A stretch of 24,780 bases of DNA from the IMG/VR virus record IMGVR_UViG_3300023100_000008, positions 1 through 24,780 of that record; one strand, written 5' to 3'. A program made the position numbers and the translations under genes. Source of the stretch: a virus. Taxonomy: Duplodnaviria > Caudoviricetes. Below are positions 1-24,780 of the stretch, in pieces; the first letter of the stretch is position 1; each line of letters begins with the position of its first letter. Under the pieces are notes generated by a model. It did not search any database. It was given only the letters and a program-made list of their open reading frames with translations, and was not told the origin of the DNA.

Positions 1-459
1 TTTTTCTTTGTCATCGGCAGCTTGTTTTGCTTCCAGTGCTTCTGCATCGGCTTTTGCTTTAGCATCGGCAGCTTGTTTTGCTTCCAGTGCTTCTGCATCG
101 GCTTTTGCTTTGGCATCAGCAGCTTGTTTTGCTTCCAGTGCTTCTGCATCGGCTTTTGCTTTAGCATCGGCAGCTTGTTTTGCTTCCAGTGCTTCTGCAT
201 CGGCTTTTGCTTTGGCATCAGCAGCTTGTTTTGCTTCTAGTGCTTCTGCATCTGCTTTTGCTTTAGCATCAGGTAGTTGAGCCTTTGTAGTCTGTAACTC
301 TTCAGCATCAACATCGATCTCGTTGATATCAACTTCAACTATTGCTTCTCCTGGAGAAACAACCTTTTTATTTGCCAATGTTCTTGCATGACTACGGGCT
401 GTATCTTCTTTATAGAATTGTTGGCCATCTGATGTAGTGAAATGTTCAGCTATATTCAT
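1..459 (-). CDS. Phage protein with Ala/Lys/Glu-rich 17-aa tandem repeats (3' end beyond window)
   Basis: Not in ORF track. ATG at 459, 1 nt after the stop of the upstream gene; open to position 1: MNIAEHFTTSDGQQFYKEDTARSHARTLANKKVV...(DAKAKADAEALEAKQAA)x5-DDKEK. Confidence 0.85.
   Translation of the reverse strand, partial: MNIAEHFTTSDGQQFYKEDTARSHARTLANKKVVSPGEAIVEVDINEIDVDAEELQTTKAQLPDAKAKADAEALEAKQAADAKAKADAEALEAKQAADAKAKADAEALEAKQAADAKAKADAEALEAKQAADAKAKADAEALEAKQAADDKEK
12..270. repeat. Coding tandem repeat, 5 x 51 bp plus a partial unit
   Basis: Units start at 12, 63, 114, 165, 216 and (267). Junction variants TTTAGCATCGG and TTTGGCATCAG alternate. Confidence 0.95.
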
Positions 460-1821: not shown

Positions 1822-2745
1822 TTAAAGGATCGCTCCGATTTTCTCAGCTCTGAAAGGAGTTGCTAAGAAATAGTGACGGTAAGACAGATCATTTGTTTGA
1901 CCAGATGGATTTGCTGAAGCAGGCGCAAAATACTGATTTGTATTACCTGTTTTCTTTGCAACACCGCCCAATGAAAAAACAATCGAACCCGCCTTGTCAG
2001 TTCCGGCAGGTACAGAGCCGAAAGCTTTTTTTACACCCGCAGCCGTATAGTATGGCATGTTTTCGTAGGTATATAAATGAAATCCTGCGATCTTCGGTGC
2101 TGGCATTCCTTCTGTGTAATTGATCAGTTTATCACCAAAGTTTTTACGGTCTAATAACAAATCGTTCCAGTGATCTTCCGTTAAAACCAAACGTCTGTCT
2201 TTTAGAGGAAACTTACCTGACTTACAAACCGATTTAAATTTTACTAAGTCATCATAAGTCAGTCTTGGACGGGTACCGTCCATTAAAGGCGCATCAGTCC
2301 CATTCACACCCGTAGCAAAAAACACCGGGGTTTTGGTAGTATTTGTCTGTGGAGCTATCGAGTGGATTGCTTTAGCATATTTTTCAACCAAAATTGCTCT
2401 TACACAACTTTTGGTTACAGTGTCTATTTTATCATAAGACGCTCCCAATATCTGATCATCAGAAACCGTTACCACTTTAGTTTGGTACTTATCCAGTGTA
2501 AACTGTAAATGACCATCTGTATACTCCTGAACAGGAATCGGATAAGTGTTATTGTTGACTAATACGTCAACTTCGAAGTCTGTTGCAGCAATGTGAATAA
2601 TGTTTTGTTCAGTTGCTGTGTTTTTACCCAACTCACTAACATCAGCATCAAGTTCGGCAACTCCATCTAACCATGGAGCCTGATCCGCTTCATCTAGGTT
2701 TTCGATCACGCGATCTAACCAAATTTCTGGGAAATTTAATGGCAT
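1822..2745 (-). CDS. Major capsid protein
   Basis: 307 aa, directly downstream of the prohead protease and followed by a terminator; size and position fit a major capsid protein. Confidence 0.8.
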   Translation of the reverse strand: MPLNFPEIWLDRVIENLDEADQAPWLDGVAELDADVSELGKNTATEQNIIHIAATDFEVDVLVNNNTYPIPVQEYTDGHLQFTLDKYQTKVVTVSDDQILGASYDKIDTVTKSCVRAILVEKYAKAIHSIAPQTNTTKTPVFFATGVNGTDAPLMDGTRPRLTYDDLVKFKSVCKSGKFPLKDRRLVLTEDHWNDLLLDRKNFGDKLINYTEGMPAPKIAGFHLYTYENMPYYTAAGVKKAFGSVPAGTDKAGSIVFSLGGVAKKTGNTNQYFAPASANPSGQTNDLSYRHYFLATPFRAEKIGAIL

Positions 2746-2748
2746 ATT

Positions 2749-3708
2749 TTATTTTTTTGTGTTAAACAATTTTGCATACTCATCTGGTTGGGTAGTTTTA
2801 AAAGCCAACTGAGCATCCAGACTTAATTTTTGAAACTCTTCTTTAGTTGTGGCACCGCCACCAACAGCAACGACTGTTTTATCTGCTAAAGTGATTTTTG
2901 CCGGGATTGAATCCAGTGTAGTTTTAAGAATTGAAAGGCTAACGTTTCCTAGCGCTTCGAACTCCGCTCTTTTTGGAGCTGCAAACTTTCCTGCTGCCTG
3001 TCCTGCATCTAGCGTTGCTTTTAAATCAGCAGCTACGGCGTTGTCTTTTTCAGTTTGCATGGCCAGTAATTTGCCTTTGCTTTCTGCGTTCTCTAATGAT
3101 AATTTCAATACAGCTGCCTCAACAGCTTCAACATCCACTTCGGGCGTTGCTTTATCGAAACTTAAAGCTGTTAATACAGCAAGTGATAGTGTGATTTTTT
3201 TCATATCGTTTTTAGGGTTTAAATCCAGAGTTATTTTTTCGCCTGGTTCAGGCTGTAGTGACAAACACAATTGCTTAACCTCTTCATCTTTTAAGAGTTC
3301 ACCAGATTGGCTGTAAAGACGAACTGAATTAGCATTTGAAGGAACTGCAACAATAGAACACTCATAAAGCTCACATTTAGTCATGATGAGTTCCTCACCG
3401 ATAATTTGTAAATCTTCACGATTAAATGAGATTCCCATTGAGCATGATTTTATAAATTCACGATCAACTTTCCCTGCAACTATTGCGGCTTTCTCATCGT
3501 CCAAGTCGAAAACAGGTTCGCCAAGTAGTAAGTCACTGTCAACTTTCACGTTTTCCCATCGTCCCAGAACATTTGTAGTTGAGTTCCAGTGATCATTTAA
3601 CATCATTGGATTTTTCTTGAATCGCTTCAAACTAATTCCAGATGTTACAATTCTGAATCCGTAACTATTTATTTGCGTTTGATCATTAAAAACAAATGGT
3701 TTAGGCAT
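2749..3708 (-). CDS. Prohead maturation protease with C-terminal scaffold region
   Basis: NPMMLNDH, SCSMGI and ELYECSIVAVPSNANS motifs of HK97-type prohead serine proteases; Ala-rich helical C-terminal half. Confidence 0.88.
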   Translation of the reverse strand: MPKPFVFNDQTQINSYGFRIVTSGISLKRFKKNPMMLNDHWNSTTNVLGRWENVKVDSDLLLGEPVFDLDDEKAAIVAGKVDREFIKSCSMGISFNREDLQIIGEELIMTKCELYECSIVAVPSNANSVRLYSQSGELLKDEEVKQLCLSLQPEPGEKITLDLNPKNDMKKITLSLAVLTALSFDKATPEVDVEAVEAAVLKLSLENAESKGKLLAMQTEKDNAVAADLKATLDAGQAAGKFAAPKRAEFEALGNVSLSILKTTLDSIPAKITLADKTVVAVGGGATTKEEFQKLSLDAQLAFKTTQPDEYAKLFNTKK

Positions 3709-3743
3709 AGGCTAAATTTTGTGGTTATTTCATTTTCTGATGG

Positions 3744-3891: not shown

Positions 3892-4329
3892 ATGGCACTC
3901 AGAAAGGCACAGGAAAAGGAGTATGCAAAATCCTTATATATAGGTGGGGGATTAACTCAAAAGGAAATAGCTGAAAGAGTTTCTGTCACCGAAAAAACAT
4001 TAGCAAAATGGATTAAGGAGGGTAAATGGGAAAATCTTAAAAAGTCATTACTAACCACAAAGCAAAATCAGTTGTCATTTTTATATGATCAGCTCGACTT
4101 TCTGAATACCGATATTTCGAAAAGAGAATTTAAAGTCGCTGTTGGGAAAGAAGCCGATACGATTATAAAAATAACCGCTGCAATTAATCGACTTGAAACT
4201 GAAACCTCAATTGGCGATACTGTAGAAGTTGCCAGAAACTTCATTGAGTTTGTGCGCCCACAAGATTTAGAGCTTGCTAAAACAATTACCAACTTTTTTG
4301 ATGTCTTCATCACTGCAAAAATGAAATAA
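3892..4329 (+). CDS. Terminase small subunit (HTH, DUF1804-like)
   Basis: N-terminal HTH (LTQKEIAERVSVTEKTLAKWIKEGKW); TAATG coupling to TerL. Confidence 0.8.
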   Translation: MALRKAQEKEYAKSLYIGGGLTQKEIAERVSVTEKTLAKWIKEGKWENLKKSLLTTKQNQLSFLYDQLDFLNTDISKREFKVAVGKEADTIIKITAAINRLETETSIGDTVEVARNFIEFVRPQDLELAKTITNFFDVFITAKMK

Positions 4330-5858
4330 TGGCCAGCGCAGAAGATAAAAAGTACTACGAATTATGGCAGCAGTTTCGGGAGAACACCCGAAAGGCAACA
4401 CCTATTGATTTAACGGAAAGTCTGGTTGATAAACAAAACCGTATTTCCAAACTGGAAAAAAACCCGGAACAATGGTTTAAATACTATTTTCCTAATTTTT
4501 ACACCTCAGAACCGGCACCATTTCATAAAGCTTCAACATTAAGAGTTTTAAAAAATCCTGAATGGTATATAGTTCGTTCCTGGTCTCGTGAGCTTTCGAA
4601 AACCGGACGTACAATGATGGAAGTTCTTTACCTGGCAATGACAGGAAAAAAGAAAAACATTTTGTTAGTATCTAGTACTTATGATAATGCTGAGCGTTTG
4701 TTACTTCCTTACAAATCTATTTTAGAAGCCAATAACAGGATTATAAATGATTACGGCGAACAGGAAAGTTTGGGAGCTTGGGAAGCTGGCGAATTTGTTA
4801 CGAAAAAAGGTGTTTCGTTTCGTGCTCTGGGCGCTGGACAGTCACCTCGTGGAACTCGTAAAGATGAAGTACGTCCGGATTGTATATTGATTGATGATAT
4901 TGATACTGACGAGGAATGCCGTAATGCATCACGAGTAAAAGCCAAAGTAAAATGGTTAGAAGAGGCTTTATATGGTACTCGTTCAATTTCAAACCCCTTA
5001 TTATGGATTGCTTGCGGTAACATTATTGCTAAATATTGTTGTATAACCGAAATGGCAAAAGTTGCTGACGAGCACGAGATCATAAACATTCGTGACAAAA
5101 CCGGAGTTTCTACATGGCCACAAAAGAACACCGAAGCTTTAATTGATCGCGCGCTTTCTAAAATATCATGGACAGCACAGCAAAAAGAATATTTCAACAA
5201 TCCAGTTGCAGATGGTGATGTCTTTAAAGAGATTATTTACGGTAAATGTCCACCTTTAAATTCTTGTGATTCTGTCCTGGCTTATGCTGACCCGTCAACC
5301 TCTAATAAAGACAAAGGTGCCAGTAAACAAGCCTCTTATAAATCTGTGGGTATTATTGGTAAAAAAGGCGCTAAGCGTTACTTATACAAAGTTTGGCTTA
5401 AGCAAACTAATAATGCAACTTTCGTTAGTTGGCTTTTTGAAGCTTACGATTACCTGGTGCAAAACAAGGTAGATATTAAGAGAATTTACATTGAAAACAA
5501 TTCACTACAAGACCCGCATTACGAGCAAGTGATCACTCCTGAAATCAAAAAAAGAAACAAGGAAATGGATGTGTATTTACCAATTACTGAAGACACCCGT
5601 AAAAAGCCGGACAAGTTTTTTAGGATCGAGGGTACGCTGGAACCGATTCACTCAAAAGGAAACTTGATTTTCAATATTGATGAAAAAACAAACCCGGACA
5701 TGGTTGTTATGGAAGGTCAAATGTTAGGAGTGGAAGAAAATGCAAAAACAATGGATGGTCCCGATATGTTGGAGGGTGGCTGTTGGCTTTTAGAAAATAA
5801 AACAGTTCCTATGGAAGGCGGTTACTCTTATGGTTCTGTTAGTAATAGAAAATTTTAA
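4329..5858 (+). CDS. Terminase large subunit
   Basis: Deviant Walker A (WSRELSKT), GQSPRG, Walker B (ILIDDID), nuclease motifs YADPS and DGPDMLEG. Confidence 0.9.
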   Translation: MASAEDKKYYELWQQFRENTRKATPIDLTESLVDKQNRISKLEKNPEQWFKYYFPNFYTSEPAPFHKASTLRVLKNPEWYIVRSWSRELSKTGRTMMEVLYLAMTGKKKNILLVSSTYDNAERLLLPYKSILEANNRIINDYGEQESLGAWEAGEFVTKKGVSFRALGAGQSPRGTRKDEVRPDCILIDDIDTDEECRNASRVKAKVKWLEEALYGTRSISNPLLWIACGNIIAKYCCITEMAKVADEHEIINIRDKTGVSTWPQKNTEALIDRALSKISWTAQQKEYFNNPVADGDVFKEIIYGKCPPLNSCDSVLAYADPSTSNKDKGASKQASYKSVGIIGKKGAKRYLYKVWLKQTNNATFVSWLFEAYDYLVQNKVDIKRIYIENNSLQDPHYEQVITPEIKKRNKEMDVYLPITEDTRKKPDKFFRIEGTLEPIHSKGNLIFNIDEKTNPDMVVMEGQMLGVEENAKTMDGPDMLEGGCWLLENKTVPMEGGYSYGSVSNRKF

Positions 5859-5862
5859 AAAT

Positions 5863-6285
5863 ATGTTTTTAGAAAAAAATGATTTAGGAAGTGCCATTTA
5901 TGGCTATCAGGTTGACCAGATCACCGAGGGAAATGACGATTTAGTTATGCAGGCAATTGGAGCAGCAATTCAGGAAGTTGGCGGCTATTTGTCCGGCGCA
6001 TCATCTTATGACGTTCCTGCCATTTTTGCAACTACTGGAACCGCTAGAAATGCTTTGATTCTAACACACACCGTCACGGTTGCAAAATGGTATTTGGTTG
6101 AATTTTGCAATGCTGATATTATATATGAGCAAGCAAAAGAAAGATATGATAGAGCTGTGTCCTGGTTAATTAAATTATCAAAGGGAACTGTCATTTTAGA
6201 CCTTCCTACAATTCCAATAAATGAACAGGAAGATGAATTGGACACTTTCGGTTGGGGGTCAAGAACAAAATTTAATCACGAGTAA
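5863..6285 (+). CDS. Mu gp36-like (DUF1320) head-tail adaptor protein
   Basis: Start moved to ATG 5863, after the TerL stop. ERYDRAVSWLIKLSKG motif typical of DUF1320; lies between TerL and portal. Confidence 0.8.
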   Translation: MFLEKNDLGSAIYGYQVDQITEGNDDLVMQAIGAAIQEVGGYLSGASSYDVPAIFATTGTARNALILTHTVTVAKWYLVEFCNADIIYEQAKERYDRAVSWLIKLSKGTVILDLPTIPINEQEDELDTFGWGSRTKFNHE

Positions 6286-6287
6286 AA

Positions 6288-7541
6288 ATGGCAAATAGAA
6301 AAGTTAGATCACTAGCACGTAAAAATATAGAATTAGCGGCAAAAACAACAACTGTAAAATCAGGCTCTCCCGGATTAGTTAATCAAATTATACCGGTTGC
6401 TATGTCTCGCGTTCGTCAGGACGTGTTAACATGGAATACAGCATTAACAATGGCACGTAAACCTGAGAAGCCTAAGCGTTTTCTGTTGATGAATTTATAC
6501 GATGAAATTTTTATCGATGGTTTATTGCGTTCACAGGTTGGGAATCGTTTTTTAAAATCTTTAGCGTGTAACTTTCAAATAACTGATAAAGCAGGAAAAG
6601 TTAACGAAGAGGTAACCAATTTTTTGCAGGATAAAATTTGGGTTAATGAAATCAATAAAGCAATCTTAGGAACGGTCACACATGGTCATTCTGTTATAGA
6701 GCTGGATTGGATAAAAAAACTTAACAACCAAGAAGTAACAGAACCGCAATTGGGAGCCAAACTTTTAAAAAGGCAAAACATTGATCCCAAGGAAGGGATT
6801 TTCTATCCTGACTATAGAGATGACAAAGGAACTGCATATCGTGAAATGCGTGAGTTTGGAACCTGGATTTTAGAGTTCGGAGATACTGAGGATTTAGGTT
6901 TGATGAATTGTGCTGTACCGCACGTTTTATTCAAGCGTTTCGCGCAATCCTGTTGGTCTGAACTTTGCGAGATTGCCGGCATTCCGCCACGTGTTATGAA
7001 AACCGACACGCAAAATATTGCGATGCTTCGAAGAGCTGAGCGGATGATGAAAGAAATGGGAGCCGCTGCTTGGTTTATTATTGACGAAAATGAAAAGTTC
7101 GAATGGGCAGAAGCCACGAAAACGGATGGCGCTGTTTATGACAATTTAATGAAATTTTGTAACAACGAACTTTCAATGCTTTTCAATGGCGCTGTAATGG
7201 GGCAGGACACCAAAAACGGCAGCCGATCCAAAGAAACTTCGATGCAAGAAACATTACAAACTTTAGTTGATAGTGATTTATCGCTTATTGAGCAATATTG
7301 GAATGCAGTGGTTATTCCTGCATTGATCAACATCGGCATTATCTCTGGAGAATGTGTTTTCTCATATCCTGAAACCGAAGATATTGCCCAATTGTGGTCA
7401 ATGACAAAGGAAGCAATGCAGCATTATGAAATGGATATAGAATGGATGAATGCAACTTTTGGCTTAAAAATATTGAAGCCCAAACAAGCTGCATCAGCTC
7501 CGGCGACAAATCTCTCATTTGGCGAAGGTTTTTTCGTTTAA
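6288..7541 (+). CDS. Portal protein (Mu gp29-like, DUF935)
   Basis: 417 aa with WSELCEIAGIPPRVMKT and GAVMGQDTKNGSRSK motifs; sits upstream of MuF. Confidence 0.88.
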   Translation: MANRKVRSLARKNIELAAKTTTVKSGSPGLVNQIIPVAMSRVRQDVLTWNTALTMARKPEKPKRFLLMNLYDEIFIDGLLRSQVGNRFLKSLACNFQITDKAGKVNEEVTNFLQDKIWVNEINKAILGTVTHGHSVIELDWIKKLNNQEVTEPQLGAKLLKRQNIDPKEGIFYPDYRDDKGTAYREMREFGTWILEFGDTEDLGLMNCAVPHVLFKRFAQSCWSELCEIAGIPPRVMKTDTQNIAMLRRAERMMKEMGAAAWFIIDENEKFEWAEATKTDGAVYDNLMKFCNNELSMLFNGAVMGQDTKNGSRSKETSMQETLQTLVDSDLSLIEQYWNAVVIPALINIGIISGECVFSYPETEDIAQLWSMTKEAMQHYEMDIEWMNATFGLKILKPKQAASAPATNLSFGEGFFV

Positions 7542-7574
7542 GCCCCAAAGTTTATAAACAGTATTTTGGGGCTT
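7529..7574 (+). promoter_or_regulatory. Candidate programmed -1 ribosomal frameshift signal
   Basis: Heptamer T TTT TTC (7529-7535) in the portal frame, then hairpin AAGCCCCAAAGT / ATTTTGGGGCTT (7540-7551 / 7563-7574). The -1 frame is the MuF ORF. Confidence 0.75.
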
Positions 7575-9091
7575 TACATAGTCGCTTAAATTTTCTGTAC
7601 GATTGTAATTGTGAAGACTGTAAAACAGAAAAACAGACTTCCTTAACATTGGCAGCAGGAAGCAAATTTAAGACCGTTTTAAAGACTGTTGAAAAAGCAT
7701 TTAAAAAGCTTCATGAAAACGGAAGCTATAAGCCTGACGATTTATTAAACACGACAGCTTATAAAAATCTAATTAAAGAAACTAGCTCCATTTTTGAATC
7801 TGCAATTGCAGACAATGACATTCCTGATCAAATGAGTAGAAGTCTTCAAAATGATACTTTTATTTTCTCAGGATTAAAAACAAATGCTCAGTTACTTGAA
7901 GCTTCAAAACTTTTAATGACTGACGACAATAAAATTAAATCTTTTAGTCAGTTTTCAAAAGATGTTCAGAGTATTAAAGAAAACTATAATCAAAACTATT
8001 TAGAAGCTGAATATCAATTTGCTGTTTCTTCGGCTCAATCTGCTGCTAATTGGGCTAATATATCCAATGATTACGATTTACAATACCGTACAGCTAACGA
8101 CAGCAAAGTTCGTGATAGTCATGCAATTTTACATGACACAACACTTCCTGTTGCTGATCCTTTTTGGATTTCATTTTATCCGCCTAATGGTTGGCGATGC
8201 AGATGTACGGCAATACAAGTTCGTAAAGGTAAATATGATTCAAGCGACAGTAAAAAATCAATAGCAAATGGAGAAAAGGCAACTAGTCAGATTGATAAAG
8301 ATGGTAAAAACAAGCTAGCAATTTTTAGATTTAATCCGGGCATGTCTCAAAAGATTTTCCCGCCTGAACACCCATACGCAAAAGTTAAAGGAGCAAAAGA
8401 AGTTGTTAAGAACTTACAGCAGTCAAAAAACATTAATCTTTCTGAATACATAAAAGGAGACTCACCCACTAATAAGGAAATGAAAGATATTCTTTTAAAG
8501 TATGCGAATATCTCACCGGAAGATTTTAGGAATGGTCTTGATGATGTGAAGTTTTTAAAATCAACTTCCTACATGATGCAACATTCGATGGCGTACAATC
8601 CAAGAACCGGTAACTGGGTAGGAGGTTCTAAAATAACATTAAGTAGTCACGAGTTTTCAAGTATAAAGTTCAATCCGTTAGAAGAATTTAGAGGAGGTTT
8701 GGCGGCTATAAAGAGCGGTAAGAAATTGACCTTTAACCAAGAATATTCTTTTGAAAGCTTATGGCATGAAATATTACACGCCAAAACTAAAACGCCACCA
8801 AAACAATTAACGACAGTTGGTACCAAAAACATGGAAACCATAAATCAATTTGTTGCGCGTCATACTTACCCGGAGTTTATGAAAAAACTTGGCGGAGAAG
8901 CAATTCACCAAAAAGAAATTTTAGATAACGGCTATGGTTATAAAGGCTGGATAACTGATTTTAGAGAAAATCTTAAAAAGAACAATATTGATGAAAAGAA
9001 AGCAGCAAAAGATTTAATGCCTTTTTTATTGGAAGATTATAGCTCTATTGGAAGTAAGGTAATAGAATATATAAAGGAAAATACTAAATAG
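7535..9091 (+). CDS. MuF (Mu gpF-like) minor head protein with C-terminal HExxH metallopeptidase/toxin-like extension; probably translated as a portal fusion
   Basis: MuF motifs YNQNYLEAEY, LQYRTANDSKVRDSH, FYPPNGWRCRC and FRFNPG; ~220-aa extension containing LWHEILHA. The frame is open from 7442 but has no ATG near the portal stop (alternative TTG at 7649), so the start is uncertain. Confidence 0.85.
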   Translation, partial: RLSPKVYKQYFGALHSRLNFLYDCNCEDCKTEKQTSLTLAAGSKFKTVLKTVEKAFKKLHENGSYKPDDLLNTTAYKNLIKETSSIFESAIADNDIPDQMSRSLQNDTFIFSGLKTNAQLLEASKLLMTDDNKIKSFSQFSKDVQSIKENYNQNYLEAEYQFAVSSAQSAANWANISNDYDLQYRTANDSKVRDSHAILHDTTLPVADPFWISFYPPNGWRCRCTAIQVRKGKYDSSDSKKSIANGEKATSQIDKDGKNKLAIFRFNPGMSQKIFPPEHPYAKVKGAKEVVKNLQQSKNINLSEYIKGDSPTNKEMKDILLKYANISPEDFRNGLDDVKFLKSTSYMMQHSMAYNPRTGNWVGGSKITLSSHEFSSIKFNPLEEFRGGLAAIKSGKKLTFNQEYSFESLWHEILHAKTKTPPKQLTTVGTKNMETINQFVARHTYPEFMKKLGGEAIHQKEILDNGYGYKGWITDFRENLKKNNIDEKKAAKDLMPFLLEDYSSIGSKVIEYIKENTK

Positions 9092-9362
9092 CTGTATTTA
9101 TGCAGTCAAAGCCTAAGCCTTCACTTTTTAATTTTTTAGGTAGTTTTTGCCAATATGTATTTGCTTTTTTCTGATCGTTTCTAAATTCAAACAGAACGGC
9201 CAAATCATAATACGCATTTTCTTGTGAAACAAGATCTTTATAAAGCTCTGGAGTGAGTTCTTTATCAGTTTCAATACCAAACTTTAAGGCCATAGAAAAG
9301 CTATCAAAACGAATGTCGTTCAGTTCTCCTGGGGTGGGATTAAAATTAAATATTGTTTCCAT
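9084..9362 (-). CDS. Small acidic helical protein, candidate immunity protein for the MuF C-terminal domain
   Basis: 92-aa ORF filling the gap between MuF and gpG on the opposite strand, with its own consensus promoter; TPR-like segment AYYDLAVLFEFRNDQKKANTYW. Confidence 0.7.
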   Translation of the reverse strand: METIFNFNPTPGELNDIRFDSFSMALKFGIETDKELTPELYKDLVSQENAYYDLAVLFEFRNDQKKANTYWQKLPKKLKSEGLGFDCINTAI

Positions 9363-17009: not shown

Positions 17010-17648
17010 TTAGATTTTCTCTGATCCTCTTAATTTTTCGTAGCCTTCTTGCCAAACTATATAAGTTCCGCCATTGGGTCCTATTGTCCGTCCTTTGCAC
17101 GTTGCTAAATATCCCGACACGAATATTTTTTTGTTTGCATCGTACATAATCTTCTTTTCCATCTCAGAATATGGATTACTACCAAGTGCCATTCCTGAGA
17201 TTATTATTATTTTCCTTCGCTTGTATTTTCTTGTAAACTCAAAGTATTTTTCCAAGCTCTCGAAAAAATAAGATGCTGAATTAATTAGTACAACTTCTGG
17301 ACTATTACGGCGATCCAAAAATTCGCACAGTTCCTTATAATTATAACTGGCAGCATAGTAATTGTCTTTAACATCCTGCATATTTTTAAGATTGGTTCTT
17401 TTGATAAAATCGTCATCATCCAGTTCCTCTTCAAGCTCATTGTGTATTGCTTTTAGCTCTTCACAAAGGGCTTTCACAATATCTAGCAATACACTACTTT
17501 TTCCAGAACCAGAACCGCCCCATACAAACCAAACACCTCTGTTCTGCGGATTACCAAATGCCTGATATAACTTTGGTGCAATTTTTTCGAAATCAATGAG
17601 CGTAACTTTTTGGTTAACAATGTTGCCGACATTCAGGGCTTTTTTCAT
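17010..17648 (-). CDS. P-loop NTPase (RecA/KaiC-like fold)
   Basis: Walker A GGSGSGKS and Walker B-like VVLINS; ATGA overlap with MuB. Confidence 0.8.
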   Translation of the reverse strand: MKKALNVGNIVNQKVTLIDFEKIAPKLYQAFGNPQNRGVWFVWGGSGSGKSSVLLDIVKALCEELKAIHNELEEELDDDDFIKRTNLKNMQDVKDNYYAASYNYKELCEFLDRRNSPEVVLINSASYFFESLEKYFEFTRKYKRRKIIIISGMALGSNPYSEMEKKIMYDANKKIFVSGYLATCKGRTIGPNGGTYIVWQEGYEKLRGSEKI

Positions 17649-18580
17649 GCAAACATCTGGGTTGGTAGGTTGAGTACTTTTCTAACAAATTGCTCGTTAA
17701 GCTTTTCTCCGGTTCTGTCCGCTTCACGTAACGCAGGTACTAAAGCATCATGTAGTTCACCGTAATTTTCACACACTCGCTGTAAAAATGACCTAAGGGG
17801 TCTGTCTTCTACATTTTCCAAAAATCCCTGAAAGTTTTTATCAATACTTGGTAAAACACGTATTCCGAATTTGATACGTCGATAGAACTGACGCATACCT
17901 GCCTTTTTACGTTTTCTTAGTTTATCTAAATTGTCAATCAATTCATCCGTACCGATGAGAACTATTGAGCAATGTCCTTTCAAATCGTCTGTAAACTCCT
18001 TCATCATTGAAAGTGTTGGTTGTTTCATATATTCACATTCGTCAAAAATCAATTGCGGTTTTAATCCTTCAAATTTTTGCTTTTGCATAAACTTTACGAT
18101 CGCATTAATGTTTTTACTTTTGGTTTTAGCGTGTGCGATTTTGGCTTTGTCCAAAATTTTATCAATCAAGTCTGAAAGATTATCAGAACTACCAACTTTA
18201 ATTATAAAAGTGTCAAGTGGATGCTGTGCGGCAAATAGGTTAGAATTAAATGTTTTTCCGCAACCCGTTTCACCTATTACAGGGTTAATTGTGCCGTGTT
18301 CTTTCGAATCTTCTAATATTGCCATCATAGCGGTCATTTGTTTAGTTACTACAGGTTTCCAATACGTTTTGGTTAATGCTAATCCAATAAATGAAGCCAC
18401 TTTTTCAAACCATTTAGGGGCTATTTCAGTGGGACCAATCTTGAAACTTTTATTTCGCATGTTTGAGATATAAGCTTCATTAACTCCTGATTTCTTAACA
18501 AAGTCATTAGCTGACATTTCATGTTGTGATAAGTAGTTTTCTAACTCGTTTACAATTTACTTTTTTATTTCTTGTGTCAT
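17645..18580 (-). pseudogene. MuB-like AAA+ transposition ATPase with premature in-frame stop at codon 8 (290-aa ORF remains from ATG 18517)
   Basis: Walker A GETGCGKT, Walker B LIFDECE and arginine finger QFYRRI. Coupled ATG 18580 reads MTQEIKK*IVNELENYLSQHEMSAND..., in frame with 18517. Confidence 0.7.
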
Positions 18581-20661
18581 GGTCGTAGGTATTTGTTGAT
18601 GTCTGTCTTTTGGTTATAATATTCATCCTGTTCTTGTTGCCAGGTCTTACTTTCTTTAATTTCGATTAACGTTTCTTGTCGTTGCAGTAATTTTGTTCCT
18701 TTGTGCTGTAAACGTTGTCGGCTTTTCTGGTCTTTATGTTGCCCCCTTGAATCGACGATTAAATGTTTTGCAAGTGTGTCATTCAGTAAAGGATTTTCGA
18801 AGAGATTTTCTAATAAGAGCGCATTTTCTTCACGTTCGTTTGTGATGTATTCAATTGCACGTTTATTGTAGTCACTCACTCGTTTTAACTGCCCGGCATC
18901 CGCTTCGTTTCGATCATCCAAAGCCATTGCCTGAATATGTTTTCTTTCTAATAAATACCGGTGCTTATTATCTTTACTTACTGCCAGAACTTGATCTATA
19001 TTTTGCGAATCGTATAGTATTTCCCAATCCTGGTGCGCCTGTTTTCTGAAATCTAAATCAAAGCTGTCGTACACTTCTTTAGCACCGTCAATCCTTACGT
19101 TTAAACCTGATCCAACTAATTTGTTGGTGTGACCTGATTTTTTGCCTAAGGCTAACAGAAAGTTTTCTTGTGGCATTGTGAGTTTTAAATCTTCGGGTAC
19201 ATTTTCCCAACTATTGACATATTCATCTACCTTTTTTGCTCTTTCAGATCGAATGATACTTTCTAACTGCTGCCTGCATCCCTGTTCGTCCGGGAAATAC
19301 TTGCTTATCTTATTGATCATTTCTGAATTTGGCTGATTTTTAGAACCACTATTAATGTTGTAACCGCTCCAATTGTCCATTAACCTGCAATACGCGTTGT
19401 TTAAATGACTGAAATACGGCTCAATGATTTTTGATTTAGCATTCTTAACCTTTGCAGGTGTATACACGTGTGCGCATGCCTGATAAACCGGAGTAAGCAC
19501 CTTACTTTGATAATTATCACTTTGCAATTGTCTTGGATTCATTCTTTGACCAAATAATTCAGCTGTGTGGTTGATCGCATTTCGTAAAGCTTCTTTAATA
19601 AGCTCCGGTGATTCGTGAGAACCTATTGCATAACCAATTGGATATTTGTTGAAAGCATCCAGAACAACAACCAATGTTAACCTATTGTGATATGTCGTTG
19701 TAGAATATCCGGCTTTGTTAACAGTTGTATTTTGATATAAAAGTTCTGCGTCCCATCCGTCAAGTGTCCAATAAAGCATTGGAGCGCTTGGAGCTTGTCT
19801 TTTGTTTTGCATCAAAATATTATTTGACAATGCAGAAACACCATTGCGTCCGGCATAAATAACAAGGTTTCTTTCTTTTTTGCGGTTTCCAACGGTTTGA
19901 GCCGTAATGGTTGGCCACTTCATTTTTTCAGCAACGATGTTATATAAATTCGATACTAACTCATTATCTAAATTGGTGTGTTTCGCTAACAATTCATCTA
20001 TCAAAGCTTCCTGCTCGCGTTCCTTTAATTTCAGAGCATTTTGCGTTCCGAACTTATCAGAAATGATACTGGCATAGCCTTCTTTCACATACTTGTTTAC
20101 CTTAAATCTCAAAGAACTTTTTGTAGTTGGTAACTTGTGATCAACTTCGGTGAAGGCGTTTACATCGCGGCTTAAACTTTCCCAAATATCTACCGTTGTA
20201 CAGCTCAATGTTTTTAAATACTGCTTGCGATTCGTTTTCATCAGCAGTACTGTGTTTAAAACTGAGGCCTGAAACACATATTTTTGAATTACTGCCGGAT
20301 CAAGTTTTATATTTTCGCCATACTTATAGTCTATATAAAAATTAAACGCTTCACGATCTGCGATATAGTGCTGAGCAAACCAACTCTTTTTTATTTCCTC
20401 GTTTGGTTTTCCAAACTTCACCGCTAACTGATCTTTCCAATCCTGAGCGATTGATGAAAGTAAAACCAGAGCGTCACAGCCTAATGATCCGCGACGTAAT
20501 TCAGTTTCAGTACTCTTTTTAGAATTAAGGCGTTTGTATAATGCGTTATAACTAATAAGCTTTAAACTATCGGGATGAAAACATCGTTCGAAACGATCAT
20601 ATACTAAGTATTTCATTTTTACACCTAGTTTCTTGTCGTGATATTCGTAAGGCGTTTCCAA
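18577..20661 (-). CDS. MuA-like DDE transposase
   Basis: 694 aa; WTLDGWDAEL (D), QSDNY (D), KSKIIEPYF (E); TTG start 1 nt after the cro stop. Confidence 0.9.
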   Translation of the reverse strand: METPYEYHDKKLGVKMKYLVYDRFERCFHPDSLKLISYNALYKRLNSKKSTETELRRGSLGCDALVLLSSIAQDWKDQLAVKFGKPNEEIKKSWFAQHYIADREAFNFYIDYKYGENIKLDPAVIQKYVFQASVLNTVLLMKTNRKQYLKTLSCTTVDIWESLSRDVNAFTEVDHKLPTTKSSLRFKVNKYVKEGYASIISDKFGTQNALKLKEREQEALIDELLAKHTNLDNELVSNLYNIVAEKMKWPTITAQTVGNRKKERNLVIYAGRNGVSALSNNILMQNKRQAPSAPMLYWTLDGWDAELLYQNTTVNKAGYSTTTYHNRLTLVVVLDAFNKYPIGYAIGSHESPELIKEALRNAINHTAELFGQRMNPRQLQSDNYQSKVLTPVYQACAHVYTPAKVKNAKSKIIEPYFSHLNNAYCRLMDNWSGYNINSGSKNQPNSEMINKISKYFPDEQGCRQQLESIIRSERAKKVDEYVNSWENVPEDLKLTMPQENFLLALGKKSGHTNKLVGSGLNVRIDGAKEVYDSFDLDFRKQAHQDWEILYDSQNIDQVLAVSKDNKHRYLLERKHIQAMALDDRNEADAGQLKRVSDYNKRAIEYITNEREENALLLENLFENPLLNDTLAKHLIVDSRGQHKDQKSRQRLQHKGTKLLQRQETLIEIKESKTWQQEQDEYYNQKTDINKYLRP

Positions 20662-22781: not shown

Positions 22782-23888
22782 TTATTCTAAAACCAATGCT
22801 CCCAAAGCTTCTTTACTAAAACCTTTCAATTCATCAGTTTTCCCAGCTTTGATTTTTGCTACCCAATTAGGGTCAGATAAAAGAGGTCTTCCTACTGCAA
22901 CCAAATCAAAATCGCCTCTGTCGAAACGTCTGTTTAATTCTTCTAATGAAGTTGGTTGAGAACTTTCTCCTGCAAATGCACCAAAGAAATCACCAGAAAG
23001 ACCAACAGAACCTACTGTAATAGTTGGTGCTCCGGTTACTTTTTTAGCCCATCCTGCAAAGTTCAAATCAGATTCTTCGAATTCAGGTTCCCAAAAACGA
23101 CGTTGAGAACAGTGTAAAATATCAACTCCTGCATCAACAAGAGGTGTTAACCATGCTTCTAATTCCTGTGGATTTTTAGCCAGTTTATAATTATAATCAG
23201 AAGGTTTAAATTGAGAAAAACGCATGATAACAGCGAAATCATTTCCTACTTGTTTTCTGATTTCCTTTACCACTTCAATAGCAAAACGATTACGTTCCGG
23301 AAGTGTTTTTCCTCCGTAAATATCCTCACGTAAGTTGGTTTCGGCTCTAAAGAACTGGTCAATCAAATAACCGTGCGCTCCGTGAATTTCTATCGTATCA
23401 AAACCTAATCTTTTAGCATCGGCGGCAGCCTGGCCAAAAGCAAGAATGGTATCTTCAATATCTTTTTCGGTCATAGAAACACCATTTCTAAAATCAGGAC
23501 GGTTTAATCCCGACGGACCTTCAAAAGGAACCGGTGGCACCCATCCAGAATGATGATTATCCATAATTCCCATATGCCAGATTTGTGGTCCCATAGCACC
23601 TCCGGCAGCGTGAACTTCGTCGATCACTTTTTTCCATCCGTTTAAAGCTAAATCCCCATGAAAATGTGGCACATTAGCATCATTAGATGATGAAGCTCTG
23701 TTGATAACAGTTCCTTCAGATAATATTAAACCAACTTCACCTTCAGCTCTTTTTTGGTAGTAAGAAGCTACTTCATCAGTTGGAACTCCGTTTGGAGAGA
23801 ATGAGCGCGTCATTGGCGCCATTACGATTCGGTTTTTAAGATTTAACGTTTTTAAGTTAAATGGAGAAAACAGGTTGTTTGTACTCAT
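22782..23888 (-). CDS. NADH:flavin oxidoreductase (old yellow enzyme family), host gene
   Basis: NRIVMAPMTR, EIHGAHGYLIDQF and DLVAVGRPLLSDP motifs. Confidence 0.95.
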   Translation of the reverse strand: MSTNNLFSPFNLKTLNLKNRIVMAPMTRSFSPNGVPTDEVASYYQKRAEGEVGLILSEGTVINRASSSNDANVPHFHGDLALNGWKKVIDEVHAAGGAMGPQIWHMGIMDNHHSGWVPPVPFEGPSGLNRPDFRNGVSMTEKDIEDTILAFGQAAADAKRLGFDTIEIHGAHGYLIDQFFRAETNLREDIYGGKTLPERNRFAIEVVKEIRKQVGNDFAVIMRFSQFKPSDYNYKLAKNPQELEAWLTPLVDAGVDILHCSQRRFWEPEFEESDLNFAGWAKKVTGAPTITVGSVGLSGDFFGAFAGESSQPTSLEELNRRFDRGDFDLVAVGRPLLSDPNWVAKIKAGKTDELKGFSKEALGALVLE

Positions 23889-23894
23889 AGTAAT

Positions 23895-24197
23895 TTACAA
23901 ATTAGATTGAATTAAGTTACTGAGTGCTTCAAAGGCACCTTCGTTGCGTTTATAGTAAGTCCATTGTCCAACACGTTTAGATTCTATAAATCCGGCGCGT
24001 TGTAAAATAGAGAGATATTCAGAAACAGTCGATTGCGTCAAGCCAGCTTTGGCTTGTATTTGCCCCACGCAAACTCCGTGTTCAAATCCGGCATGCTGGA
24101 GCTGATCCGGAAAATTGATTTCAGGTTCTTTTAACCATTCCAGCATTTGCAATCTGGATTTGTTGGAGAGTGCCTTAAAGATTTCTATTGGTTCCAT
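23895..24197 (-). CDS. ArsR/SmtB family transcriptional regulator, host gene
   Basis: Start moved to ATG 24197. FKALSNKSRLQML and LTQSTVSEYLSILQRAGFI..KRVGQWTYY motifs; TATATTTG -7 box at 24202-24209. Confidence 0.92.
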   Translation of the reverse strand: MEPIEIFKALSNKSRLQMLEWLKEPEINFPDQLQHAGFEHGVCVGQIQAKAGLTQSTVSEYLSILQRAGFIESKRVGQWTYYKRNEGAFEALSNLIQSNL

Positions 24198-24324
24198 CGT
24201 GCAAATATATCGACTTTTCCCGATATGCCAATTTACAAGATAATTATTTAATAAAAAATTAAGATGAAGGAAGGTGAAAGCGGGAGATTTTAATAAAGAA
24301 AATTTATATTTGCTTATGAAAATT

Positions 24325-24403
24325 AATCTCGCAAAGGCGCCAAGACACAAAAATAAAAGCTTATAAGAAATAAAACTTTGTGGCTCTGCGCCTTTGCGAG
24401 ATT
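24325..24403. repeat. Host intergenic inverted-repeat element
   Basis: AATCTCGCAAAGGCGC (24325-24340) / GCGCCTTTGCGAGATT (24388-24403). Confidence 0.75.
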
Positions 24404-24444
24404 TAAAAAAAAACAAACCCCCAAATGAATAACTTAATCAAATT

Positions 24445-24780
24445 ATGAAGAAAACTCTACTTATTCTAGGACTTTTATTGTGCATAATAACGACGTCAAA
24501 AGCTCAGGTTGTGGGAACCGATGTTGGTGATATTGCTCCTGAAATTGATCTTCCGGATACAAAAGGAAATAATGTGGCACTTTCCTCTTTAAGAGGAGAT
24601 TTAGTCTTAGTAGACTTTTGGGCATCATGGTGCGGACCTTGTATAAAAGAACATCCGCAATTAATAAAATTAAACAGTACCTACGCAGGCAAGTTTTCTA
24701 TTTACAGCGTTTCTATGGATACTAAAAAGCCGCTTTGGCTGGGCGCTATCGCAAGGCAAAAATTGACATGGACACAAGTA
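24445..24780 (+). CDS. TlpA/ResA-family thiol-disulfide oxidoreductase (partial), host gene
   Basis: Not in ORF track. Signal peptide MKKTLLILGLLLCIITTSKAQ, then APEIDLPD and VLVDFWASWCGPC; open to the window end. Confidence 0.92.
   Translation, partial: MKKTLLILGLLLCIITTSKAQVVGTDVGDIAPEIDLPDTKGNNVALSSLRGDLVLVDFWASWCGPCIKEHPQLIKLNSTYAGKFSIYSVSMDTKKPLWLGAIARQKLTWTQV

Follow-up and report, generated by a model that had tools for sequence, protein, structure and literature searches.

A conserved, probable programmed −1 frameshift signal at the portal–MuF junction of Bacteroidota Mu-like phages

The junction between the portal and MuF genes of the phage studied here very likely functions as a site of programmed −1 ribosomal frameshifting, as judged from its sequence and from that of its relatives. 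The window, by which we mean the whole stretch of DNA analyzed, is a virus record of 24,780 bases, and we call the element a Mu-like transposable phage because it carries a transposase (rve) gene and an AAA ATPase gene at 17645–20661. In the reading that we favor, with a probability of about 0.88, tandem slippage of tRNA-Phe at U UUU UUC, stimulated by a downstream hairpin, would yield portal subunits in a plain and an extended form, which would assemble together and bring MuF with its effector into the head. The comparative evidence indicates that the recoding signal is real and strongly conserved, that it belongs to a known mechanism in a gene pair new to it, and that its polarity has been reversed repeatedly.

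Anatomy of the junction and its surroundings

The features of the window on which the argument rests are as follows.

3892–6285, plus strand: small terminase-like HTH, large terminase and Mu gp36 head–tail adaptor genes, upstream of the portal gene
6288–7541, plus strand: Mu-type portal gene (DUF935), 417 aa, with C-terminal Phe-Phe-Val-stop (Pfam PF06074 Portal_Mu, E 6e-67; PHROG 113 portal)
7529–7535, plus strand: T TTT TTC, a slippery heptamer of X XXY YYZ pattern in portal register, read directly from the sequence
7535–9091, plus strand: 518-aa MuF frame, entered by a shift to −1 (Pfam PF04233 Phage_Mu_F, E 3.5e-14)
7536–7541, plus strand: 6-nt spacer holding the portal stop TAA (7539–7541); the first G-C pair lies 6 nt 3′ of the heptamer
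7540–7574, plus strand: predicted stimulatory RNA hairpin of 12 bp with one G-U pair and an 11-nt loop, from folding
7562–7621, plus strand: linker with a YFGALH helix and Y-x-C-x-C-x-x-C, 3′ of the shift site and 5′ of TTG 7649 and ATG 7832
8429–9088, plus strand: variable C-terminal domain, a predicted zinc metallopeptidase-type effector with an invariant HExxH...E (8765–8779, 8834)
9084–9362, minus strand: convergent ORF of 92 aa, a candidate immunity protein tied to the window-type C-terminal domain
17645–20661, minus strand: transposase (Pfam rve, E 9e-5, below the curated cut-off) and AAA ATPase (AAA_22, E 1.5e-11) genes

The portal gene ends in GGT TTT TTC GTT TAA. An initial annotation of this DNA had placed a slippery heptamer one codon before the portal stop, followed by a hairpin, and both are present at 7529–7535 and 7540–7574, respectively. 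The predicted hairpin has a folding energy of −16.0 kcal/mol (z −4.3) that was equalled by none of 200 shuffled sequences; a search of Rfam found no known RNA family at the junction and one chance match (E 0.29). The MuF frame lies, as had been proposed, exactly at −1 to the portal frame and stays open to 9091, with the MuF core at about 7943–8215. Fusion of 416 portal residues to these 518 residues would give a protein of 934 aa and 106.3 kDa, alongside a plain portal of 47.4 kDa. An assembly or sequencing error at the junction was considered and ruled out, both by conservation and by two contigs, from one other study, that span the junction without an indel.

The packaging block runs in the order terminase, gp36 adaptor, portal, MuF and neck. 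Its large terminase has no Pfam match and was named by gene order in annotated relatives, and the closest named relatives of the portal are Flavobacterium portals (97% and 92% identity). Protease and major capsid genes at 1822–3708 on the minus strand oppose the terminase–portal block, which runs from 3892 onward on the plus strand, a divergent head module unlike that of Mu. At the left edge, 3′ of the lysis genes, an ORF truncated by the window boundary (1–459, minus strand) encodes about five tandem 15-residue repeats rich in Ala, Lys and Glu. At the right edge (22782–24780), the genes past the repressor resemble host genes, presumably for a flavin oxidoreductase, an ArsR-type regulator and a thioredoxin-like protein, and the record therefore probably takes in the right flank of the prophage.

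Register, heptamer, stem and start codons among relatives

Alignment of portal–MuF junctions, which the initial annotation had suggested, revealed conservation of the heptamer, the −1 register and the stem, with covariation in the stem. The first set of loci was gathered by similarity of the portal, without regard to the junction, and comprised 168 loci including the window, of which 165 reached MuF: 163 at −1, one fused and one labelled ‘0’, the last of which proved to have the usual junction with a break further on. The full set drew on genome, viral, metagenome and GenBank loci, with portal and portal–MuF fusion proteins as queries; many loci were fetched twice. Both portal and MuF were found in 376 of 403 sequences (27 were dropped for missing one match), and collapsing the set at 90% portal identity left 216 non-redundant representatives, with MuF at −1 in 180, fused in 25, at +1 in nine and at 0 in two. 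Frame offsets are thus far from random, as 180 of the 191 non-fused representatives share the −1 register. A phylum-wide genome sample contributed few loci (5/401).

Some departures from this register were inspected individually. The automatic ‘0’ or ‘+1’ labels of L052, L229 and L293 were rejected, as the junction is the usual one in each and the break lies elsewhere. In L278, L330 and L340, MuF is at +1/−2. About 60–70 nt before the portal stop, L330 and L340 have CTT TTT TCG in common, followed by a GC stem, and this site may represent the switch in a +1 or −2 version; no such site occurs in L278.

An in-frame X XXY YYZ heptamer is present in 176 of the 180 −1-type representatives (97/98 in the first set, also at 90% portal identity), and in 166 it is followed 5–7 nt 3′ by a GC stem. 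The 14 that fail this strict heptamer-plus-stem test have the heptamer alone (10) or a CTT TTT tetramer alone (4). In a control that used every fourth representative, 18,373 portal-body codons contained 116 heptamers and just five heptamer-plus-stem sites, so the frequency at junctions exceeds chance. The portal C-terminus reads FFx in 111 of the best 120 homologues listed. Among 92 representatives that end in Phe-Phe, the first Phe codon is TTT in all 92 (background 0.73) and the base 5′ of it is T in all 92 (43.8 expected). Nucleotide conservation at the heptamer is, on these counts, greater than the protein alone would require. Moreover, Asn-Phe, Pro-Phe or Leu-Phe (NF, PF or LF) replaces FF at some portal ends while the slippery pattern stays, and the 166 sites with a stem include variants of sequence A AAT TTT (7) and C CCT TTC (1).

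These substitutions bear on the idea that Phe-Phe serves the portal as a signal in the protein and that the hairpin acts on RNA stability or termination, with no fusion made in −1-type loci and MuF weakly expressed or unexpressed. FF is indeed nearly invariant at the portal C-terminus, and a hairpin after a stop codon is terminator-like. However, the replacements of FF retain slipperiness, the U run sits 5′ rather than 3′ of the stem, codon-level selection acts on the MuF frame from the shift site on, and particles of hankyphage contain MuF peptides. Nor was a terminator called at 7200–8000, a weak argument in that the 11-nt loop is above the scanner limit. We regard this explanation as extremely improbable.

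The stem keeps its position and varies in sequence. Of 97 scored stems, 91 have their first G-C pair 6 nt past the heptamer, a spacing preserved even where the portal stop has shifted, and a helix of at least 6 bp starts from the identical position in 181 of 193 junctions. Predicted folding energy peaks at −16 kcal/mol at the stem, compared with −6 to −9 kcal/mol in the flanks. When the arms differ from GCCC, pairing is retained in 49 of 55 cases, and the second pair of the stem is C-G in 147 junctions and G-C in 31. Pairing partners were picked by best pairing, and the control is thus a swap test rather than the pair table alone: arms swapped between loci paired in 1428 of 13,572 trials. In the aligned sequences, the arms of the predicted stem have been rewritten yet still pair, and hence covary.

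This geometry also informs a second alternative, in which RNA polymerase, not the ribosome, slips on the T run and adds one extra U to make the fusion. One extra T does yield an identical fusion in L015, and polymerase slippage is plausible in the distant phages fF4 and Peternella_1, which have long A runs and weak stems. By contrast, the window run is just six T, the A AAT TTT and C CCT TTC variants lack a long homopolymer, and the T run is kept in codon register. A stem 6 nt 3′ of the slip site fits the ribosome entry channel, whereas the same stem is still untranscribed while polymerase sits on the run; its fixed placement thus suits a ribosomal event. Overall, polymerase slippage seems to us highly improbable.

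Protein conservation in the MuF frame begins at the shift site. Within the linker, Tyr24, Cys28 and Cys31 are conserved in 97%, 93% and 95% of sequences, respectively; variability at third codon positions is highest in the −1 frame (1.59 bits versus 1.31 and 1.08); and the linker segment is also in frame in the natural fusions P0039, P0125 and P0133. A census of start codons in the MuF frame found no start position common to the representatives. Upstream of the conserved Leu, ATG occurs in 9/98 and any of ATG, GTG and TTG in 17/98, with near-cognate codons (CTG, ATT, ATC, ATA) in 60/98. Upstream of the first conserved Cys, the corresponding figures are 59/98 for ATG, GTG or TTG and 89/98 when near-cognate codons are counted. 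In 52 of the 180 −1-type representatives, the −1 frame opens no more than 16 nt before the portal stop. Database gene calls for the MuF family range from 392 to 634 aa.

Could MuF nevertheless be started separately, by re-initiation or from a weak start (ATG 7442, CTG 7595 or TTG 7649), with the hairpin merely tuning coupling? The window does offer two in-frame candidates, ATG 7442, which lies within the portal gene and was missing from the initial annotation, and TTG 7649; the first ATG after the portal stop lies at 7832, not 7831 as originally given. In addition, candidate starts precede the first conserved Cys in many representatives, an ATG overlaps the portal stop in hankyphage, and some relatives do use separate starts. 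We count ATG 7442 as non-conserved because in L001, the closest relative, a stop interrupts the −1 frame four codons before the portal stop, and conserved residues precede TTG 7649, the codon that the initial annotation had singled out as a possible conserved start. Against a separate start, too, are the lack of any shared position and the late opening of the −1 frame. A separate start would also leave unexplained the synonymous constraint on the heptamer and the heptamer variants, and the same signal occurs in single-ORF fusions, which need no start. We therefore consider separate initiation very unlikely. As there is no conserved MuF start, MuF is probably made in the window only as an extension of the portal. 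The junction thus has the elements by which a −1 frameshift site is recognized: an in-frame heptamer, a stable structure 5–9 nt 3′ and a long conserved −1 ORF without a conserved start.

Fused genes, reversed polarity and cultured phages

A search aimed at longer relatives yielded 40 portal–MuF proteins encoded by a single ORF. These retain Phe-Phe and an AP...GA junction pattern, which is what the heptamer and both stem arms encode in the 0 frame. At the DNA level, the junction motif is present in 37 of 43 fused loci (T TTT TTY in 32, N CTT TTT in 5). The 25 fused representatives comprise 17 with heptamer and stem, four with the CTT TTT tetramer and stem, one with an extra-T site (L015) and three without a signal (L208, L209, L373). 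In 21 of the 25, the signal is reversed, in that the 0 frame encodes the fusion and the −1 frame runs into a stop, which lies 0–41 codons past the slip in the 17 heptamer-plus-stem representatives. Parsimony on a quick portal tree of 128 rows, with no bootstrap and several long branches, counts eight polarity changes, at least five of them forced by strong branches (SH-aLRT ≥95). For example, L071, with a −1 fusion, and L196, with a 0-frame fusion, have portals that are 71.5% identical.

Two of the single-ORF fusions, L015 and protein P0125, read through the junction as FF-R-L, as frameshifting predicts. Both have a −1-type site plus one T (3658–3664 in L015) and are either homopolymer errors or hard-wired fusions. 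A structural model of the natural fusion P0039 shows two well-folded parts, portal and MuF, connected by a low-confidence linker (residues 385–443; pTM 0.49).

The maintenance of both polarities suggests that selection keeps two products. Of the initial proposal, that a −1 frameshift fuses MuF to a minority of portal subunits, the frameshift reading is supported by register, by the lack of a conserved start and by stem covariation; the claim that the fusion is a minor form is weakened. Reversed relatives read the fusion by default, and the ratio of fusion to portal may therefore be high or loosely constrained. It is the making of two portal forms, more than of a rare fusion, that seems to be the conserved function: in several lineages the 0 frame encodes the fusion, and the same slip would end a short portal.

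The signal extends to cultured phages with 22–28% portal identity. Hankyphage p00, the jmh isolates and Elizabethkingia phage TCUEAP3 (for which a literature search returned no paper that mentions it) have T TTT TTC, a 6-nt spacer, a GC stem and MuF at −1, and Porphyromonas phage007a and phage011a have the reversed form. Hankyphage keeps the signal in addition to the ATG that overlaps its portal stop. Mass spectrometry of hankyphage particles detected three MuF peptides and 20 portal peptides (PMC12135933 S6 Table); these data do not separate fusion from free MuF because small proteins were also present in the 85–250 kDa slice (PMC12135933). In lotta8-1, FPSV-S1, Mushuvirus and Mu, portal and MuF are separate genes. 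With five separate-gene relatives (including Mu, lotta8-1 and FPSV-S1) and three fused representatives that lack the signal, the switch is not universal.

Several distant loci have junctions of other kinds. In fF4 (L169, near 3700–3720) and Peternella_1 (L174, near 3665–3690), A-run heptamers with weak stems lie in a −1 overlap, and the annotated MuF starts (3730 and 3790, respectively) are probably artificial. The portals of lotta8-1 (L170, 3740–3790) and FPSV-S1 (L171, 3920–3965) end in K-x-L/M-Y...C-K-H, and MuF has its own ATG. This ending resembles the post-shift helix-plus-Cys linker, and the split point appears to have moved in these two phages.

Proposed mechanism, effector cargo and relation to known systems

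From this architecture, we infer ribosomal slippage and its efficiency, mixed rings, and effector packaging and delivery, in the following sequence. First, the hairpin 6 nt 3′ of the heptamer would slow the ribosome, which could slip one base back on U UUU UUC, such that one mRNA would give both the 417-aa portal and the predicted 934-aa portal–MuF-effector protein. Second, both portal forms would enter one ring during assembly. The C-terminus of a portal faces the head interior, and MuF with its swappable C-terminal domain would thus hang inside the head by a flexible linker from the portal C-terminus. Such a covalent tether would replace the non-covalent binding between portal and gp7 of SPP1. 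Finally, in lineages of reversed polarity, the same slip would end translation at a short portal. More broadly, we lean toward the view that in Bacteroidota Mu-like phages, including hankyphage and the Porphyromonas phages, the portal ring is a mixture set by recoding, that frameshifting in either polarity, with repeated flips, loads MuF effectors, and that start-less MuF genes and fused genes are mis-annotated halves of a single two-product locus.

The predicted cargo is variable. The model of the C-terminal domain of the window protein is confident (pLDDT 96.7), and the domain has no Pfam match and no fold match in the PDB at E ≤0.001. From the HExxH...E motif it may be a metallopeptidase, and one atlas cluster for the domain carries 18% Peptidase_M78. 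The 105 C-terminal regions of MuF loci form 17 groups, and a scan of 28 of these regions gave ADP-ribosyltransferase (ART), glutamine deamidase, PBECR2, LPD3 and weak CdiA_C/CdiA-like matches. The 92-aa candidate immunity gene occurs in 19 of loci L001–L168, always beside a window-type C-terminal domain and never without one, and has a weak TPR match (E 0.046). It overlaps the MuF stop by 8 nt, and hankyphage (L176, L224) has a similar convergent small ORF past MuF.

With MuF directly 3′ of the portal in a temperate phage and a C-terminal domain that varies across relatives, the locus shares the layout of the MuF polymorphic toxins, which are described as separately started genes after the portal (Jamet et al. 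2017 PMC5576092; Bxa PMC11699363; Apk2 PMC10083569); the word ‘frameshift’ is absent from their main texts. The likeness extends to the MuF1 domain and a small adjoining candidate immunity gene. In contrast to these toxins, the window has a C-terminal domain without a Pfam family and its candidate immunity gene on the opposite strand. In SPP1, gp7 (MuF) binds the portal in few copies, and only ~25% of the virions that lack gp7 are infectious (PMC6316719). The portal is thus the target of a small number of MuF molecules, which aid infection (PMC6316719, PMC5576092). The gp6–gp7 pair, however, consists of separate proteins bound non-covalently, whereas the window is predicted to encode a covalent tether set by recoding.

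Single-ORF portal–MuF proteins have the same domain order as the predicted window fusion (Microbacterium phages; PMC5512222; PHROG 35074). Those of Microbacterium phage subclusters EA3, EA5 and EA8 and cluster EB (PMC7302621), and a PBECR domain fused to MuF and portal (PMC5512222), are described as plain fusions. By contrast, most of the Bacteroidota-family fusions examined here keep a shift signal that is predicted to release a short portal.

Both outcomes have parallels in other systems. Tailed phages use a −1 frameshift in the tail assembly chaperone genes G/GT (reportedly described by Xu, Hendrix and Duda in 2004). Like portal–MuF, G/GT has the same heptamer, a −1 shift toward the 3′ end of a late gene, and a short and an extended product with a common N-terminus. 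Portal–MuF differs in joining a head portal to MuF, both virion components, in its tightly spaced covarying stem, in having a polymorphic effector as the extension and in the reversal of polarity in several lineages. Moreover, the G/GT pair lies 5′ of the tape measure gene, and the genes here are a portal (PF06074) and MuF (PF04233). In E. coli dnaX (tau/gamma), a −1 shift yields the short subunit of a mixed oligomer, and in orfA/orfB of the IS3 family a shift yields a fusion; the reversed loci thus resemble dnaX, and the window arrangement resembles IS3. Unlike dnaX and IS3- or IS911-type sites, the portal–MuF site has a heptamer that is U-rich instead of A AAA AAG, just 26 of 193 junctions have an SD-like motif upstream, and both polarities occur within one gene family. 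As for the heptamer itself, a shift on UUUUUUC is predicted in the SPP1 tail chaperone 17.5/17.5* (PMC6316719), and T TTT TTC is given for the tail chaperone shift of the Pseudomonas Mu-like phage PaMx73 (PMC4378225).

A term search of papers on this phage family (PMC7761591, PMC12135933, PMC10367356, PMC8776804) found no frameshift at the portal–MuF junction, and in PMC4378225 and PMC7911831 the frameshifts found by such a search concern tail chaperones alone. No description of portal–MuF recoding was found in a search that left out most subscription journals, frameshift catalogues and most supplements, and an earlier mention is possible.

If the proposed mechanism holds, the portal joins a short list of phage genes with conserved recoding. 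There are several implications. First, the model predicts where hundreds of MuF proteins, at present annotated from arbitrary starts, truly begin, as well as a hidden short portal within genes annotated as fusions. Second, sister lineages of opposite polarity would constitute a natural experiment on the evolution of frameshift signals and subunit ratios, and cultured phages with the signal exist. Finally, programmed frameshifting would offer a testable answer to a question in the MuF literature, namely by what route and in how many copies MuF effectors are loaded.
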